Below are positions 2,676 to 26,046 of a stretch of 43,856 nucleotides of DNA, in pieces. Made by a program: the position numbers and the translations under genes. Within the stretch, counting starts at the first letter, position 1. Every line of letters begins with the position of its first letter. The stretch is from a virus (Duplodnaviria > Caudoviricetes), in the IMG/VR virus record IMGVR_UViG_3300049982_000052, positions 1 through 43,856 of that record; one strand, 5' to 3'. The notes under the pieces are model-generated. The model did not search any database, was not told the DNA's origin, and worked only from the letters and a program-made list of their open reading frames with translations.

Positions 2676-2808
2676 GAGGCGCCTGCGGGGTGTAAGGCGG
2701 GCGCAGCGCGGAGCAGGTACGGTCGTGCCAGACACGACCACCGCATGACGCACAAGGTGAGCACTCGGACGCGGCCTTGAGAAGGATGCGAAGCCAGAAG
2801 TTAGCCAT
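2668..2808 (-). CDS. Small Cys-containing hypothetical protein
   Basis: MANFWLRILL... with GGAG RBS; overlaps its neighbours. Confidence 0.5.
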   Translation of the reverse strand: MANFWLRILLKAASECSPCASCGGRVWHDRTCSALRPPYTPQAPRE

Positions 2809-3355
2809 TGGTTGTCTCCTGTTCGGTGTAGGGGGTGGCAAGGGGTACGAAGCGGCCAGGAATCTCGACGCCAGCAAGGCGGGCAGCCTCAGCAGACCCG
2901 TAGGCCACAAGCACGGACGGGGCACCCGAGTTCATGTCGGCGCGCTGACCGTTGCGGTAGTGGAACGTCAGTCGGCCCTTGAGGAACAGCAGCGCCGAGG
3001 CTCGGGGCCATACATGGCTGAACCACAACATGGTCTCGGTGCGGGCGAAGATGCACGCCAGCCCATTGCGGTGCTCAGCAAGTCGATGCAGCCATTTGCC
3101 CGCGTGGGCATAGGGCGGATTGAGCCAGACGCGCCCATGCCACGGCTGAGACAGGCCGTCATCCTCGATCGTGTAGTGCTTCGTCGCCGTGTTCCACGGT
3201 CGGGTGATCGGACTGCAGGGATCGAGGTCGAATGTCCCGAGTGCCTCAATCAGCCAGGGTGGGGTGAGCCACTCGTCAGTTCCACCGATGGCGCTCTGGT
3301 GAGAACCCATCGCGCGACGGTCGGTGCCCTCGTGGCCGAATAGGTCCACGCTCAT
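2801..3355 (-). CDS. Phage Dam-like DNA N6-adenine methyltransferase
   Basis: DEWLTP, FDLDPC, DGLSQPW, WLNPPY and ARTET motifs. Confidence 0.9.
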   Translation of the reverse strand: MSVDLFGHEGTDRRAMGSHQSAIGGTDEWLTPPWLIEALGTFDLDPCSPITRPWNTATKHYTIEDDGLSQPWHGRVWLNPPYAHAGKWLHRLAEHRNGLACIFARTETMLWFSHVWPRASALLFLKGRLTFHYRNGQRADMNSGAPSVLVAYGSAEAARLAGVEIPGRFVPLATPYTEQETTNG

Positions 3356-3579
3356 TTTGAGTCTCCGAGATCCTTCAGGCGGTAGTAGTTCTCGCCTTTA
3401 TGGCTGATCACGTCCAAGTCGGCGGAGATAAAGGTCTCGGGACCCAGAACCATCGCATCGCCACTCGCGTGCGGGTATTCGGGCAGTGGAGGTGCGGCGG
3501 CGGTCCAAGACATCGAGTCCGTCGACCCGTCCCACTCATTCAGCACGGTGTCGATTTGATCGACCACTGGCTCATTCAT
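3352..3579 (-). CDS. Hypothetical protein
   Basis: ATGA-coupled ORF. Confidence 0.6.
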   Translation of the reverse strand: MNEPVVDQIDTVLNEWDGSTDSMSWTAAAPPLPEYPHASGDAMVLGPETFISADLDVISHKGENYYRLKDLGDSK

Positions 3580-3722
3580 TCGGTCTCCTCGGTGTAGGGG
3601 CCTGCGTAGTCAGCGGCCAGGTCGTTCAGGTGCGCTGCGAGCTCCGGATCGAACGCCAGCAGACGGCCAGCGGCGTCACGCAGGATGTCCTTGGCTACCG
3701 GGGCGAGGATCTCGAAGGTCAT
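3576..3722 (-). CDS. Hypothetical protein (48 aa)
   Basis: MTFEILAPV..., ATGA-coupled to the helicase stop. Confidence 0.55.
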   Translation of the reverse strand: MTFEILAPVAKDILRDAAGRLLAFDPELAAHLNDLAADYAGPYTEETE

Positions 3723-4929
3723 GCGAACTCCCTCTGGGTGCGGAGCCAGTCCTCGTCGCTGGCCTTCGGGTCGATCGGGGTCCATGGCCACAACCCGCCC
3801 CGCTTGATCCGCTGCGGCCAGTTGCGCTCGTCGCGGTCGCCACGCCACGCGACCATGTCCACATCGCCGACCTCGTTCCAGCGGAGGCCGTAGCCGAACT
3901 CGGGCCAGCCCATCAATGCCGCCGAGCCGCGGGGACGCATGTTGCGCTCGTCGCCCTTCGTGGTGGCGTGGCCGGCATGCGCCTCCAGTACCAGCGTGAT
4001 CCCGCGGGCCCGCAGCGAGTCCAGTGCCGAGATGACAGGGGCCACGTGGTCGTCGGTCTGCAATGCCCTCGGGGCGAGCTTGTACAGCGGGCCGATCACC
4101 AGCAGGTCGGGCTGGGTGGCATCGAGGACGCGATTGACCCATGACAGGTCCTTGTCCTTGACGATGTCGATTCCGCCCGGGCGGCAGTCGATCGACACCC
4201 GGTCGGACGGGTCCTTGCCCTGCGTCTTGGCCTGCAGCCACATCGCGTGGAGTTGGCGCTTCACGTGCCGCTCCGTGTTTTCGAGGTCGATGATGTGCGC
4301 CCGGATCGGCTGCATCGGGTCGCGGGTGAAGGGGTGGATTCCTGCGGCGCCCATGAGTGCGAGCTGCCGCAGGAAGACGCTTTTCCCAGGCCCTCCTCCC
4401 CGGTGATCACCAGTCGGTCCATGCGTTCCAGCAGCTGCGGTATGACCCAGTCGTAGGGCTCCTCGGGCTTGCTCATCAACTCACCGAGGGTCTGGGTCTC
4501 GATGTCCGGTGCGCCCAAGTCGCGGATCCTGGTGAGGTTGTTGACCGCCTCCGACACAAGCGACTGCGGGTCAGTCTCGAGGTCCTCGGCGCGTTGGCGC
4601 ATCCGGATCGCTTGGGCGATCACCTCACGCCGGCGCGCGAATCCCCGAACCGTGGAGGCGTGGTGCTCTACCGAGTCCGGGACGGCGGGGTTGGTGACGA
4701 TCGCCAGGTGTACGCCCATCAGGTGCTTGTTGCCGTTCAGAGCCACCTGGACCGCCATGGCGTCCGTGGGCTTGCCTTCGGCCTTCAACTCGCGCAGAAC
4801 GGCCCACAGGCGCTGGTGGGACATGTTTGCGAAGTCCGTGGAGGTGAGGATCGCGGTCGCGCGCTCCAGTGCCAGGGGTGACTGGTAGCAGCAGGACAGG
4901 ACGGACTGCTCAGCGAGGTCATCGTTCAT
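3719..4929 (-). CDS. DnaB-like replicative helicase (N-terminal DnaB domain plus RecA/AAA_25-type domain), joined by a -1 frameshift at 4381-4387
   Basis: N-part has AEQSVL..DF...HQRLW. Walker A GEEGLGKS is restored only by a -1 shift. C-part has IDLEN, DLLVIGP, LEAHAGH and RPRGSAALMGWPE. About 403 aa when joined. Confidence 0.85.
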
Positions 4930-5576
4930 CCCGCCTCCCCAAAATCGAGCACGCCTTGGCTGAGACGGCTAGCGATGAGGTCGCAATAGCGCTCTTCGAG
5001 CTCAACCCCGATCACCTTGCGCCCCATCGCCTTCGCAGCAACGAGGGTCGTACCGCTGCCAGCGAACGGGTCGGCTACGACGCCGTCGGTCCATTCGATC
5101 AATTGCTCCATCAGGTAAGGCGGCTTGGCATGGGGGTGCTCGTTCAGGTAGCGCGCCTTACCTCCATCTGTCGCGAGCACGGACGATCGCAAGGGCGGGC
5201 GCGCGGGCCAGTTCCCCATCAGGAAGATCAGCTCGGTGTCCAGGCGGTAGCCGGTTGTGCTACCGACGATCCCGGCGTCTACCGGCTTCCTCCAGATAAG
5301 GACCTGCTTGTGTGGCGGGAACGGTGCGCGCCAGGAACCGAAGACCACGGCAGGGCGCGGACCCCACATGCTGAGAATTGTGTCGCGGCAGGTGGTGTCC
5401 TGGTCGTTGATGATGCCTTTGTGCGCGTATGACTTAGCGCGCCTGTTGGTGCCCTTAGTCCAGCCGATGCCGTACGGCGGATCCGTGACAAGCACGTCGG
5501 CAGCCAGCCACTCCGTGACTTCGCGGCAATCGCCGTGGTAGAGCGTGACCGACTCGTCTTCGTAGTAGGGCTTCAC
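4926..5576 (-). CDS. DNA N4/N6 methyltransferase (beta class)
   Basis: LYHGDC, TDPPY, HPHAKP, DPFAGSGTT and GVEL motifs. Confidence 0.92.
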   Translation of the reverse strand: MKPYYEDESVTLYHGDCREVTEWLAADVLVTDPPYGIGWTKGTNRRAKSYAHKGIINDQDTTCRDTILSMWGPRPAVVFGSWRAPFPPHKQVLIWRKPVDAGIVGSTTGYRLDTELIFLMGNWPARPPLRSSVLATDGGKARYLNEHPHAKPPYLMEQLIEWTDGVVADPFAGSGTTLVAAKAMGRKVIGVELEERYCDLIASRLSQGVLDFGEAG

Positions 5577-6622
5577 TGGAACCTCGCCCGTACGTCGTCC
5601 TTGGCGTACCCGTTCCGCCGACCGTCAGGAGACTGGCCGCCCGGGATGAGCGTGAGCGGCTGGTCGTCCCACCGCTCGCCGTTCAGCCAGGTCGAAGGGT
5701 GAGCGGTGAACTTCAGGTCCGGCTTGGATGCGGCGAGAGCGACCGCAGCCGCGATGAGCGTCTGTGGGTCAGTCTTCTTGACCGCCTTGTCCCAAGCCTT
5801 GCGAGCGTTTCCCTTGTCGGTCTTCCGCGGATAGGCCTGCCAGAACTCATCGAACAGGGGATCCGATGAGGTCGCGCGCGCGGTAGTCCTTTTCCTCTTC
5901 CCTTCCTCTTCCTTTCCCTTCCCTTCCGGCGGTGAACCAGACACGGAATCGCTCACTGATCCATTCACTGAATCAGCCACTGAATGGGGCTGTGAGTCGC
6001 TCACGCCGAGCAGACGGGCCACGCTGCGCGGGATCCTGAACGATTCAATGGGCCGGTCACCCCGTCCCTTATTGCAGGAGATGTGGCTGTTGCGGATGTT
6101 CCCCGGGTGGTCCGAGCCACCCTTGGAGCGGGGGACGACGTGATCCGGGCTCGGATCCAGATCGCCGGTACCCTTCGTGGGGCCGACAATGAGCGCCGGC
6201 GTCTCGTTGGTCGGATACCCACAGAGGTGGCAGATGTAGCCGTCCCGCTTGGCGTACAGGAGCCTTATCGCAGACAACTGCAGGCTCGGAGGAGGCAGCT
6301 TGCTCGGCTGCGGGCGGTTGACACGCTGATGCTTGTGGAAGTTGACGATCATCCCGAGCTGCTGCTGTGACTTACCCCCGCGGTACGGGTAGACCAACCC
6401 CGAAGTCACCAACTCGTTCATCAACTCGTTCACGCGAGTCGCGCCCATATCCTCGTCGTACAGGAACGCCTGGGCTTTGACGTAAGCCACGGTCCAGCGC
6501 AGCAGACCCTCGTCGTCTGCCATGTTGAAGGTCGCGATGAAGAGCAGCCGGGCATCTCTTGAGAGTGTGCCGATCGTCTCGTCTTCCCAGAACTCAGGCT
6601 TCACGGTCCTGATACGTGCCAT
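5573..6622 (-). CDS. Replication initiator protein with an inserted HNH domain
   Basis: N-terminal MARIRTVKPEFW..ADDEG; central RDGYICHLC..DHVVP..GG..N..HISCN..RG; C-terminal FDEFWQAYPRK..HPSTWLNGERWDD. Confidence 0.85.
   Translation of the reverse strand: MARIRTVKPEFWEDETIGTLSRDARLLFIATFNMADDEGLLRWTVAYVKAQAFLYDEDMGATRVNELMNELVTSGLVYPYRGGKSQQQLGMIVNFHKHQRVNRPQPSKLPPPSLQLSAIRLLYAKRDGYICHLCGYPTNETPALIVGPTKGTGDLDPSPDHVVPRSKGGSDHPGNIRNSHISCNKGRGDRPIESFRIPRSVARLLGVSDSQPHSVADSVNGSVSDSVSGSPPEGKGKEEEGKRKRTTARATSSDPLFDEFWQAYPRKTDKGNARKAWDKAVKKTDPQTLIAAAVALAASKPDLKFTAHPSTWLNGERWDDQPLTLIPGGQSPDGRRNGYAKDDVRARFQ
5891..6004. repeat. Probable replication origin: 12-bp iterons plus a polypyrimidine tract inside the initiator gene
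   Basis: Tandem units cacggaatcgct, cactgatccatt, cactgaatcagc, cactgaatgggg, ctgtgagtcgct (5942-6001), next to a C/T-only tract at 5891-5927. Confidence 0.65.
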
Positions 6623-6785
6623 CGGTCACCTCCTTCGTAGTTGGGAACTGCAGGACTGTCGCGTCTCTGGGGACAGCGGTGACACCACGACGCAGCAGCA
6701 TCTGCCGCTTGGCGCGCTGAAGTGCTCGAGCACGCTCGTAGAGGCGCCGGCCGGGGTTGGCCATGGGTGAGGAAGGGTCGGTCAC
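6594..6785 (-). CDS. Hypothetical protein
   Basis: GTGA-coupled to the methyltransferase stop. Confidence 0.5.
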   Translation of the reverse strand: MTDPSSPMANPGRRLYERARALQRAKRQMLLRRGVTAVPRDATVLQFPTTKEVTDGTYQDREA

Positions 6786-7534
6786 GCGACCTCCAACAGC
6801 GAGGCGTGGTCCACGACCAAGCGGCCGATGAGTTCAGCCACCGGGGGGACTACGGCATTTCCGAGGGCGTGGAGACCGGGAGCAGCCAGTTGCTTGGGAA
6901 CCCCATGAGCCACGCGACCCACGTCTGGTTCAGGTAGCCACCCGTATCGCCGCGCAAGGCCACTCGTTGCTCGAGAGCCGGCGCGTCCACTCTCCACTGC
7001 GGCCTGTAGGTGCAGAGGCTGTTCGCGATCGACGCCCTGGGGGTAGGCCACAAGGAACAGCCGCTCACGTGTGTGTGGCGCGCCCATGGCGCACGCTGAT
7101 AGCACTGACCATTCCGCATCGAACCCGAGCTCGGCCAGGTCTCCGAGTATCCGGCCGAAGGCGTGTGCATATCCAAGGAGAGCTGCGACGTTCTCCATGA
7201 CGACGTAGCGGGGTCGTACTGCGCGAACGACTCGTTCCATCGCGGGCCACAGCCAACGGGGGTCGTCCACACCTCGCCCCAGACCTGCGGTCGAAACCGG
7301 CTGGCAAGGCGGTCCGCCGGAAACAACGACAACTGGAGGTCGGGGTTCGCTGAGCCACCAGTCGACAGCGGTGGTGACGTCGTCATGCTTGGGCACCTCC
7401 GGCCAATGGGTTTCTAGTACCGAGCGGCAGTAGTCGTCGAGCTCTACCTGCCCAACGGTGGTGATGCCGGCGCACTCGAGACCCAACTCGAGGCCGCCGA
7501 TGCCTGCGAACAGGCTCAGGTTCGTGAGGCTCAT
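6782..7534 (-). CDS. C5-cytosine DNA methyltransferase, large subunit
   Basis: Motif I LFAGIGG, IV GGPPCQ, VI MENV, VIII HTRERLF, X LGNAVVP. No evident motif IX in this frame. Confidence 0.92.
   Translation of the reverse strand: MSLTNLSLFAGIGGLELGLECAGITTVGQVELDDYCRSVLETHWPEVPKHDDVTTAVDWWLSEPRPPVVVVSGGPPCQPVSTAGLGRGVDDPRWLWPAMERVVRAVRPRYVVMENVAALLGYAHAFGRILGDLAELGFDAEWSVLSACAMGAPHTRERLFLVAYPQGVDREQPLHLQAAVESGRAGSRATSGLARRYGWLPEPDVGRVAHGVPKQLAAPGLHALGNAVVPPVAELIGRLVVDHASLLEVA
6850..7386 (-). CDS. Nested alternative-frame C5 methyltransferase small subunit (TRD/motif IX-like)
   Basis: Same-strand overlapping ORF with LWPTPRAS and LNQTWVAWLMGFPSNW. Confidence 0.7.
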   Translation of the reverse strand: MTTSPPLSTGGSANPDLQLSLFPADRLASRFRPQVWGEVWTTPVGCGPRWNESFAQYDPATSSWRTSQLSLDMHTPSAGYSETWPSSGSMRNGQCYQRAPWARHTHVSGCSLWPTPRASIANSLCTYRPQWRVDAPALEQRVALRGDTGGYLNQTWVAWLMGFPSNWLLPVSTPSEMP

Positions 7535-7926
7535 GCGGCACCTTCCCCGGTGTAGGGGATCCAGCCGCCTTCGTTGTCGAGCAGCACCCACCCGCGGTAC
7601 GTGAGCAGGGGCTCCTTGGATGGGTCGATGTCAGGGTTGTTCATCGGCAGGACCCACCCCTCGTCCTTGCCGCGCTCCCGGTCCTCGTTCTCTACGAGGT
7701 TGTGGCATGAGCCAGGCGTGGTGGCGGACCCGCACATCAGTGCCAGGTTGGCCGGCGACCAGATGCGGTCCTCGGCGCTACCGCCGCGTCCCCTGGCGAT
7801 CCGGTGCTGTACCGAGGCGAGCTTGTACAGCACGTTGGCGCCGCACCGCTGGCAGGTGTTCTGGTCGCGCTCGAGGACGATCCTTCTGGCGGCATCCTTG
7901 ACCGCCCTGGTGGCCTTGGGGCTCAT
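7531..7926 (-). CDS. HNH endonuclease
   Basis: RDQNTCQRCG..QHRIARGRGG..NLALMCG..CH..E. Confidence 0.8.
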   Translation of the reverse strand: MSPKATRAVKDAARRIVLERDQNTCQRCGANVLYKLASVQHRIARGRGGSAEDRIWSPANLALMCGSATTPGSCHNLVENEDRERGKDEGWVLPMNNPDIDPSKEPLLTYRGWVLLDNEGGWIPYTGEGAA

Positions 7927-22706: not shown

Positions 22707-23230
22707 CTATCGTGTGCTCGAGATGCCGTCAGGCACCGAGCCAGTCAGGTACTTCAACGCGGCAGCGAACGAAGCCGTGCGCCGCTTGTCTTCGGACCCG
22801 TCCCCCAGCGGGTAGCCGATCGCCTTACAGACCTTGCCCATCTGCAGGGCGTCAGCCATGGGGTTGCACTTACGTGCCACGGTCCAGTACCAGCGGGCGA
22901 TCTTCGCCGACCAGTCCAGCGACAGCGCCAGGTCCGGATCGAGCGCCAGATCGGCGTTCAGGTACGCGCCGGCCGCTACGTAGTTCGCGGAGCCCGTGAG
23001 TTGGATGTAGCCACGTCCCGCGTACTCGGCGGTGGCTCCACGCTGCTTCACGTTGTAGAGGAACGCTGACTCGTGAGCCAGTGTCGCGAGGAACGCCGCC
23101 ACTCTGCGGTGGGTGTTGATCTCCGCCGAGTTCATCTGCTCCAGCAGGCTCGGGAGGCCCTCGGCAACCACGGCCGGGTCACCGACGCGGCCGGGGAACA
23201 TGGCCTGCAGGTCAGCGACCGTCAGGCTTT
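22707..23230 (-). CDS. GH19 (chitinase/lysozyme-like) endolysin domain, probably expressed as a -1 frameshift extension of the upstream lysin
   Basis: AAFLATLAHES, YAGRGYIQLTG.ANY and A.WYW motifs. The only nearby in-frame start (ATG 23201) lacks a clear RBS. Confidence 0.85.
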
Positions 23231-23944
23231 TGGGGCAGCCACCAACTCGTCGACCTTCGCCTTCAAGGCCGCCACGTCCGCGTCGTTGGCCTGATCGAGC
23301 TGGGAGATGAACGCGTTCACCGCGTTGGCGTACTTCTCGTCCAGCGTCTCCACCTGCCCGAGCGCGCCGGCGAGCTGCTGGGTGAGGTTCTTGGCGTTGA
23401 ACGAGGAGTAGCTCTGCACCACCGGGGTCATCTTGGCGACGACCGCGTTGACGATCTTGTCGATGTCGGACTGCTGCACGTCGTCCTCCGTGAGTAGATG
23501 CGGGTAGGTCTTGGCGTACTTCTCCCAGGTCCACGAGACCCAGGTGCGGGGGCCGTTGTCCGGTCCGTTGTTGGCCAGACCGTTGCGTCCGGCCTTGTAG
23601 TCGGCGACCTGGTCCTTGGCACCACGGGAGAGGTCGGGACAGCCGATGGCGATGCAGTGGATGTGCTCTGGCCAGACGTTCTTGATTTCCAAGCGGTGCC
23701 ACGCAGCGAAGCCGACCTTGCGGAGGATGCTCACCGCCTCACCGACCTGCGCCGCAGTCAGCGTCTTGGCGCGGATGTCTACCGCACCACCGCCGTCGTG
23801 GGTGCCCGCCGATGCCGCCACGGCACCGTTGTTGTAGCAGCCCTGAGTGATCTCCAGGGGGGCGTCGCAAACGACGCGCGCTGCTACCACCATGTCACGA
23901 GTGCGGGCATCCATGGTGTGGCCTTCGAACACGACTCTCGTCAC
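23222..23944 (-). CDS. Endolysin, M15/LAS-type Zn peptidase with a helical C-terminal region
   Basis: SAGTHDGGGAVD, GFAAWHR and EHIH motifs; GGGAGG RBS before GTG 23944. Confidence 0.85.
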   Translation of the reverse strand: MTRVVFEGHTMDARTRDMVVAARVVCDAPLEITQGCYNNGAVAASAGTHDGGGAVDIRAKTLTAAQVGEAVSILRKVGFAAWHRLEIKNVWPEHIHCIAIGCPDLSRGAKDQVADYKAGRNGLANNGPDNGPRTWVSWTWEKYAKTYPHLLTEDDVQQSDIDKIVNAVVAKMTPVVQSYSSFNAKNLTQQLAGALGQVETLDEKYANAVNAFISQLDQANDADVAALKAKVDELVAAPKA

Positions 23945-25128: not shown

Positions 25129-26046
25129 CTACGCGTGCCAAAGGTTGCCGATCGACACGCCTGTGCCGAAGTTCGAGGCGAACTGTGCTGCGACCTGGTG
25201 GTAACCGATCCCGTACGCGCCCTCGGCCGGGTTCCATGCCCGGTACGGCTTGACCACCTGGTTGCGGAGCCAGTCGCAGAACCGCGAGTAGTTCGAGCCC
25301 GAGTAGTTGAACCACGCCAGCGCGGGCATCGACGCCACGTCCGCGGGGTACTTTCCGTCGGGCTGCGAGGTCGCCCAGTACAGGCGGGACACGAAGAACC
25401 GGGCATTCACCAGTGCGTCGTGGTAGCTGATGTCGGCCCACGGCACCTTGTTCGTGGTGTCGTCCATCAACTCCCGCAGGCCGAACCCGCACGCCGCATG
25501 GTCGTGGTGGTCGTCGGTCTGCGACATCGTGAAGTGGAACGAGTTCGGGTAAGCGTCCACGTACCTCTTGATGATCGCCTTCGCCTGAGCGATTCCCTCC
25601 GGAGTCACCGGTGAGGTGGAACTCGAGCCCGTTCCGGCGAAGTCTCCCGGCAGGTCCTCGATGTGGTGCGTCACCGAACCTGTGACGCCGGGGGTGACGG
25701 GCGGGACCATCGCCATCGCGGCGAGAGCGGAGCGCGCCTCCCGGTTGCGGGCCGCGCCGACGTCTCCTGCCGTGAGGCGGGCGGCCGGCGCGGCTAGGGG
25801 GTACCCCTCACGGGCCGGGTTGTGGATGTACGGGTGGTCGCTGATCGTGCACGCCACGGCAGCGCCCGCGTCGGTGGATCCGTTGAGGGTGTACGCCACC
25901 CCAAGTGCACTGCCGTTAGTGATTGACACGAGGTGCACGTCGACGCCGTTGGCGATGTAGTACAGCATCGCCAGACCCATCGACAGCGTCTCGTCGTCCG
26001 GATGAGGCGAGTAGAAGAAGGCGCGCGCCATGGGGTCTCCGGTCAT
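25129..26046 (-). CDS. PIG-L/LmbE-family deacetylase
   Basis: PHPDDETL, V.LVSITNG, R.REA..AL and DDHHDH motifs. Start 26046 or 26031. Confidence 0.85.
   Translation of the reverse strand: MTGDPMARAFFYSPHPDDETLSMGLAMLYYIANGVDVHLVSITNGSALGVAYTLNGSTDAGAAVACTISDHPYIHNPAREGYPLAAPAARLTAGDVGAARNREARSALAAMAMVPPVTPGVTGSVTHHIEDLPGDFAGTGSSSTSPVTPEGIAQAKAIIKRYVDAYPNSFHFTMSQTDDHHDHAACGFGLRELMDDTTNKVPWADISYHDALVNARFFVSRLYWATSQPDGKYPADVASMPALAWFNYSGSNYSRFCDWLRNQVVKPYRAWNPAEGAYGIGYHQVAAQFASNFGTGVSIGNLWHA

Follow-up and report, generated by a model that had tools for sequence, protein, structure and literature searches.

Comparison of an endolysin gene end across loci of related soil phages and of prophages makes it very probable that programmed -1 ribosomal frameshifting yields a short lysin and, from the same gene, a long lysin with an added GH19 domain, slip site and GH19 frame together forming a conserved and portable cassette located where actinophage endolysin genes end. 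The window analyzed here is the whole 43,856-base virus record (65.7% G+C), whose genes include portal, protease, capsid, tape-measure and integrase genes. Its minus-strand lysis region is made up of a 240-aa open reading frame (ORF), the frame for GH19 and a small ORF with a hydrophobic product (Table 1); the last gave no Pfam or PHROG match, and no sigma-70 promoter or terminator signal was found across the region. The minus strand reads GCT GCC CCA AAA GCC TGA at the end of the lysin gene. As the original prediction had stated, the heptamer is in -1 phase one codon ahead of the lysin stop, and the -1 frame, which reads PKSLTVADLQAMFP..., runs into GH19 as far as a stop at 22707. The predicted product sizes of 240 aa and 412 aa likewise agree with the computed frames, and at the site the GC3 signal switches frame, being 0.87 in the 0 frame before it and 0.85 in the -1 frame after it. 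The closest prophage copies, L110 (Kribbella deserti) and L363 (G042, same family), make a Kribbella-like host likely, and both adjoin genes for phage tails or heads. A PIG-L-like deacetylase gene (25129-25950, minus strand; Pfam score below the cut-off) lies upstream of the lysis genes, and such a gene is also found near the cassette in L176 and L271.

Table 1. Features of the lysis region and of the helicase gene, in window positions
Feature	Position	Strand	Basis or remark
0-frame endolysin gene, 240 aa	23222..23944	-	GTG start with SD-like site; C-terminus ...VAAPKA-stop
N-terminal domain, predicted Hedgehog/DD-peptidase fold (M15/LAS-type Zn peptidase)	23540..23944	-	structure model
Long helical stalk, residues 158-236	23237..23473	-	model helices, pLDDT 56-72; no recognized wall-binding domain
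Slippery heptamer C CCA AAA, then invariant G	23228..23234	-	sequence and locus comparison
0-frame stop TGA	23222..23224	-	one codon past heptamer; overlaps -1-frame CTG
Candidate 3′ stimulatory hairpin, 16 pairs, 7-nt spacer	23177..23220	-	RNA folding
-1 frame GH19 domain, 173 aa	22707..23228	-	opens with helix SLTVADLQAMF; acid E53; Q62 at inferred base position
Internal ATG, gene callers' start (164-aa call)	23199..23201	-	no SD-like site
Hydrophobic ORF, 78 aa	22461..22697	-	holin-like by inspection only
Second heptamer G GGA AAA, in Walker A of DnaB-like helicase	4381..4387	-	sequence
15-pair hairpin, 5 nt past helicase heptamer	4339..4375	-	RNA folding

Twelve phage or prophage loci (the window, L001-L003, L110, L176-L178, L267, L268, L271 and L363) were gathered via the GH19 protein, not via the slip site. 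Comparison of these homologues for the slip site, as proposed originally, returned XXXAAAA-G in -1 phase in 12/12 loci. Eleven of them read CCCAAAA, the heptamer used by phage A2, and one (L110) reads GGGAAAA, so that all three X bases are changed (G GGA AAA) and the slip rule is kept. The 0-frame stop follows one codon after the heptamer (two codons in L003), and each phage locus examined has an open -1 GH19 frame behind it. The codons of the heptamer are rare in the remainder of these genes, AAA accounting for 20 of 189 Lys codons and CCA for 16 of 250 Pro codons. The lysin heads upstream fall into seven groups that are unlinked by BLAST over their catalytic parts and represent at least two folds: window-like peptidases (three loci), Amidase_2 types (Pfam matches in five loci, one below the cut-off; L002 by PHROG) and three unassigned heads. 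Within the 45 nt before the heptamer, only 13-22 positions are identical to the window in the other slip loci. The rare codons, the unrelated heads and the switch from CCC to GGG indicate that the site is conserved beyond the needs of protein or codon usage.

A pattern search biased toward slip sites added a 13th locus, L397, its 12 hits comprising six known loci, this new one and five chance matches. The pattern hits L257, L259, L394, L398, L399, L401, L402 and L427 proved to be unrelated chance matches, and L428 was a helicase read in frame. Among 120 peptidase homologues, 53 end in [PG]K[AVG]x (51 when the window and one doubtful row are subtracted), and the C-terminus of many others is an in-frame PG-binding-type tail. 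Thirteen PK-ending peptidases come from contigs of exactly the same size as contigs with a GH19 match, suggesting that each pair shares one contig. The twelve loci found via the peptidase (L004-L015) showed no heptamer near their stops, one of them stopping at a contig end. No close relative was found in the annotated phage collection, and genome samples at order and class level, each of 401 genomes, yielded no new prophage copy; a metagenome scan returned mostly distant GH19 and one duplicate of L003. Four distant viral GH19 loci that were checked (L272-L274 and L278) contain ordinary stand-alone genes.

In cellular homologues the GH19 domain follows a signal peptide or another domain in frame and has the same T-x-ADL helix. 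The heptamer occurred at 0/46 anchored cellular loci and was absent from 58 of 59 rows of an overlapping set, the exception being L110 again. Since secreted cellular members carry T-x-ADL-x-AMF in mid-chain, the helix noticed upstream of the ATG at 23201 is confirmed as part of the domain. The Met of MFP is therefore structural, and translation begun at it would lack the first helix; it is the called start in most of the 120 nearest GH19 proteins. In a tree of 74 rows (quick method, midpoint root, L267 omitted as truncated), 12 slip loci group with 24 database proteins that start with MFP; this clade of 36 rows (SH-aLRT 98) lies among secreted actinobacterial GH19 sequences. The nearest cellular kin in the tree are GH19 proteins that Kribbella and other Actinomycetota secrete, with a 61% identical domain and the same first helix. 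Unlike the phage cassette they are in frame, have no heptamer and mostly keep the Glu at the base position (108/130). The simplest reading of these sequences is a single capture of a secreted actinobacterial GH19, which would then have been shuffled behind many heads. Among 101 genomes of the G001 family, 70 contain a secreted GH19, frequently as two tandem copies (L096-L122 and other family genomes).

The GH19 frame could also be a separate gene reached by translational coupling, with restart at the codon overlapping the stop or at the MFP ATG and without a fusion product, a reading that we regard as improbable. GTG, a normal coupled start, does overlap the stop in L001 and L003 (2/13 loci), but the codon in this position is CTG in 10/13 loci and CTA in 1/13. 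The MFP ATG is kept in 12/13 loci and is where gene callers start; it is, however, equally conserved inside the in-frame cellular proteins, and initiation there would cut the first helix. The ATG at 23201 had been described as lacking a clear RBS, which agrees with an SD-like pairing of -1.0 kcal/mol as compared with -6.4 to -10.8 kcal/mol at seven ordinary starts. Scored against the anti-SD motif, this pairing is weaker than -2 kcal/mol in 10/12 loci, and the ATG itself is missing in L177. For clade members P0032, P0090 and P0364 the called start is a Met immediately ahead of the helix, and coupled starts may act in some members, but coupling explains neither CCA-AAA nor its change to GGA-AAA.

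Considerably less probable still is a fusion arising from RNA-polymerase slippage, in which an extra A in the run of the transcript would give nearly the same protein as frameshifting. The A run is only four long, while polymerase slippage sites usually have much longer runs, and the XXX triplet is conserved and in codon phase in 12/12 loci, which matters to tRNA re-pairing and not to a polymerase. A precedent is Thermus thermophilus dnaX (T. thermophilus), which according to the covered portion of a review uses slippage in place of frameshifting (PMC5009743). An assembly error or dead gene, with one A lost from an in-frame fusion, has practically no probability left despite the A-run context and the fact that the sequence support comes from contigs: the break is repeated in 11 unrelated loci, two of them in bacterial genome assemblies (L110 and L363), a Logan contig across the site (depth 12.8, possibly from the source sample) has 0 differences and 0 gaps, 14 longer homologues, inspected out of a list of 120, included no in-frame amidase- or peptidase-GH19 fusion, and the undercalled A run first offered as an alternative to recoding is excluded because the same break recurs across loci.

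For programmed frameshifting, a stimulatory structure had been proposed in the form of the stem GGTCGCTGAC/GTCGGTGACC. This stem does start 7 nt past the heptamer; its stability is modest, and no single structure is common to the loci. On the best cut, a 50-nt piece, the window hairpin folds at -25.3 kcal/mol (z -2.4, 4/200 shuffles as good), and z weakens to -0.3 to -1.5 on four alternative cuts. RNAalifold found 0 pairs shared across the slip loci. Pairing of the window's stem holds in 57% of cells, double-sided changes being no more frequent than in shuffles; L363 and L267 retain this stem with altered bases. Folding after the site has z below -1.5 in 7/12 slip loci versus 8/46 cellular and 8/48 downstream control windows, a comparison whose p values overstate independence because the control loci are mutually related; at the other slip loci (5/12) the hairpin z lies above -1.5. 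This stronger local folding than in the controls suggests locus-specific hairpins. A search for an upstream SD-like stimulator gave no common site or spacing among the 12 loci.

The model of the N-terminal domain (mean pLDDT 78.5) aligns with VanX (Z 7.3, rmsd 2.9, 100 aligned residues) and with the endolysin Ply500 (Z 6.5, rmsd 4.1, 100 aligned), and its top 13 VIA structural matches all have the Hedgehog/DD-peptidase fold at middling scores (Z 5.8-7.6). Zinc ligands of M15/LAS enzymes follow the pattern H-x6-D ... H, to which H49, D56 and H96 correspond in the lysin. Together with H94 these residues are invariant in 57/57 rows, and the fold alignment and the invariant residues make an M15-type zinc peptidase likely. 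By sequence, the N-terminal domain had no Pfam, PHROG or PDB match; for the head family the best Pfam hit was a weak one to Peptidase_M15_3 (E 0.14) in 1/14 members, with an Atlas lead of 0.88, and Foldseek returned no match at E 0.001. The modeled stalk resembles coiled coils at no better than Z about 5, and may possibly serve oligomerization.

The appended domain matches Pfam Glyco_hydro_19 (PF00182) at 35.4 bits, above the cut-off of 25.5, and has the GRG-x-IQLTG-x2-NY motif as well as the catalytic acid, E53, which is invariant in 12/12 loci. The earlier designation as a glycosidase is thus right as to family and acid, and falls short at the second Glu, the inferred base, which is replaced by Q62. 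Glu is found at this position in 2/12 slip loci and 14/98 phage-type proteins, the 108/130 cited above being GH19 proteins with a long N-terminus, mostly cellular; the position was set as nine residues after the acid by counting from the lysin of mycobacteriophage D29, not by structure, and 12/240 rows without the motif were left out of the counts. Because the inferred base is missing, the GH19 domain may bind rather than cut. We lean slightly toward a glycan-binding or weakly active module, and an active muramidase is nearly as probable. Five GH19 proteins of the phage clade (P0121, P0123, P0193, P0210 and P0216) are extended in frame by a GH12-like domain, two of them with a match to Pfam PF01670. 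As two GH12-extended proteins come from contigs equal in size to those of PKA-ending peptidases, a three-domain frameshift product is possible.

In the mechanism that we propose, Pro- and Lys-tRNAs would slip from CCA-AAA to CCC-AAA, aided by the rare AAA codon, the close stop and the locally evolved hairpin. The majority of ribosomes would terminate and release a 25.8-kDa protein, and a minority would continue to a 44.1-kDa protein; the fixed ratio given in the original prediction calls for more cautious wording. The added domain could stand in for the wall-binding domain that these lysins are missing, and more speculatively the short and long forms might co-assemble via the helical stalk. 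In the covered part of a study in E. coli, C_CC.A_AA.A is among the shift-prone motifs and X_XX.A_AA.A is weaker than X_XX.A_AA.G (PMC4066793).

The window has a second break of one base, within the Walker A motif of a DnaB-like gene (3719-4929, minus strand). The hairpin following its heptamer has z -4.9 with 0/200 shuffles as good, whereas 16 in-frame relatives fold only weakly there (z -2.1 to +1.0), and only 1/229 background windows lies below z -3. Relatives found with the C-terminal half of the helicase are in frame in 17/17 cases (18 loci, one without the site). A search with the 222-aa 0-frame product, which is biased to such forms, listed 150 representatives, of which 10 go out of frame directly behind GK. 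In the nearest cluster there are 10 full sequences of 222 aa, from three sources, 85-91% identical to that of the window and all with the same off-frame tail; the other representatives are nine diverged ones. The strong hairpin and the off-frame relatives, from one lineage and some distant ones, speak against a one-off break, and the helicase site is likely programmed too, in some lineages, given the hairpin and the relatives with the same break. Full-length helicase relatives (P0385, P0388, P0396, P0424, P0434, P0437, P0446, P0457, P0499 and P0510) have a long insertion straight after the Walker A GK, which we take to be intein-like; a frameshift at the insertion point might thus alter a homing target. 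Three DNA methyltransferase-like genes (Dam, N6/N4 and C5) surround the helicase gene (2801-7591, minus strand).

From the XXXAAAAGC shared by the lysin and helicase sites, genome-wide use of recoding had been suggested. The second site does look programmed, but its break is limited to some lineages, the hexamer AAAAGC alone is not over-represented (3 observed versus 4.8 expected), and "genome-wide" is too strong since two or three sites make no genome-wide code. A tail-assembly-chaperone-like ORF (33127-32573, minus strand) is followed by an open -1 frame onward to 32376 without a canonical heptamer, and this stretch (33127-32376) is a possible third, non-canonical shift site. A more far-reaching reading, tentative and on balance unlikely as a whole, would see in the cassette a mobile "slip-and-append" module of Kribbella-type phages. 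A host-derived GH19 domain, mostly without its catalytic base, would be placed as a glycan-binding arm on any head at a set low fraction; the holoenzyme would assemble through the stalk with a stoichiometry set by slippage, and the helicase would be independently dosed by its Walker A frameshift.

If the frameshifting reading is true, many database entries, namely the 164-170 aa "putative chitinases" that start with MFP and the lysins that end in PKA, are halves of one recoded gene. Such halved entries matter for endolysin mining, as standard annotation misses the long form, and the presence of the L110 and L363 prophages in bacterial genome assemblies makes the frameshift reading testable. 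A literature search over listings and the texts cited here gave no description of such a lysin cassette, and we regard this as a known mechanism in a gene class for which no clear precedent was found. The word "endolysin" is absent from the covered portion of a frameshift review (PMC5009743), as is "frameshift" from that of a paper on mycobacteriophage lysins (PMC3314691). Frameshifts in genes near endolysins, not the GH19 cassette, are predicted in the covered part of another study (PMC9671017). The lysin of Lactococcus phage phiVML3, encoded by two overlapping genes, is cited as a frameshift-containing lysin in the part of the PRFect paper covered (PMC10885494); its products are described second-hand as a larger lysin and a small holin-like protein, unlike a peptidase-GH19 pair.

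The long form resembles gp10 (LysA) of mycobacteriophage D29, in which an N-terminal peptidase and GH19 are joined in one chain, as described in the covered part of the lysin paper (PMC3314691), and one of the closest solved structures is that of the D29 GH19 domain (9hqw, E 8e-15). According to the portion covered of a preprint, the D29 lysin differs from the cassette in being an in-frame fusion with a C-terminal domain and both Glu residues, E228 and E237, of which E237 is the catalytic base (bioRxiv 2025.01.22.634383). The capsid and tail proteins of phages T3, T7, Lactobacillus A2 and Listeria A118, A500 and PSA offer a parallel in mechanism: a shift near the gene end adds a C-terminal domain to part of the product, as set out in the portion of the review covered (PMC5009743). 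Those systems add mostly Ig-like domains to virion proteins, whereas the cassette would give lysis enzymes with many unrelated heads a GH19 domain, which has an enzyme fold. Two forms from one gene are also described, in the parts of the sources covered, for the endolysins Ms6 LysA, 2638A, Lys170, CD27L and LysP7951, some of which co-assemble (PMC9430671, PMC3111421). Isoforms from such in-frame internal starts share the C-terminus and the stop, whereas the two cassette products would have the N-terminus in common and be set apart by a -1 shift; in the window the two parts lie in different frames and the internal ATG is without SD pairing. Phage frameshifts are known mainly from tail chaperones and virion proteins, and two-form endolysins from internal starts; a frameshift in a lysis gene would, if true, be a third route to lysin isoforms and a new lever on lysis.
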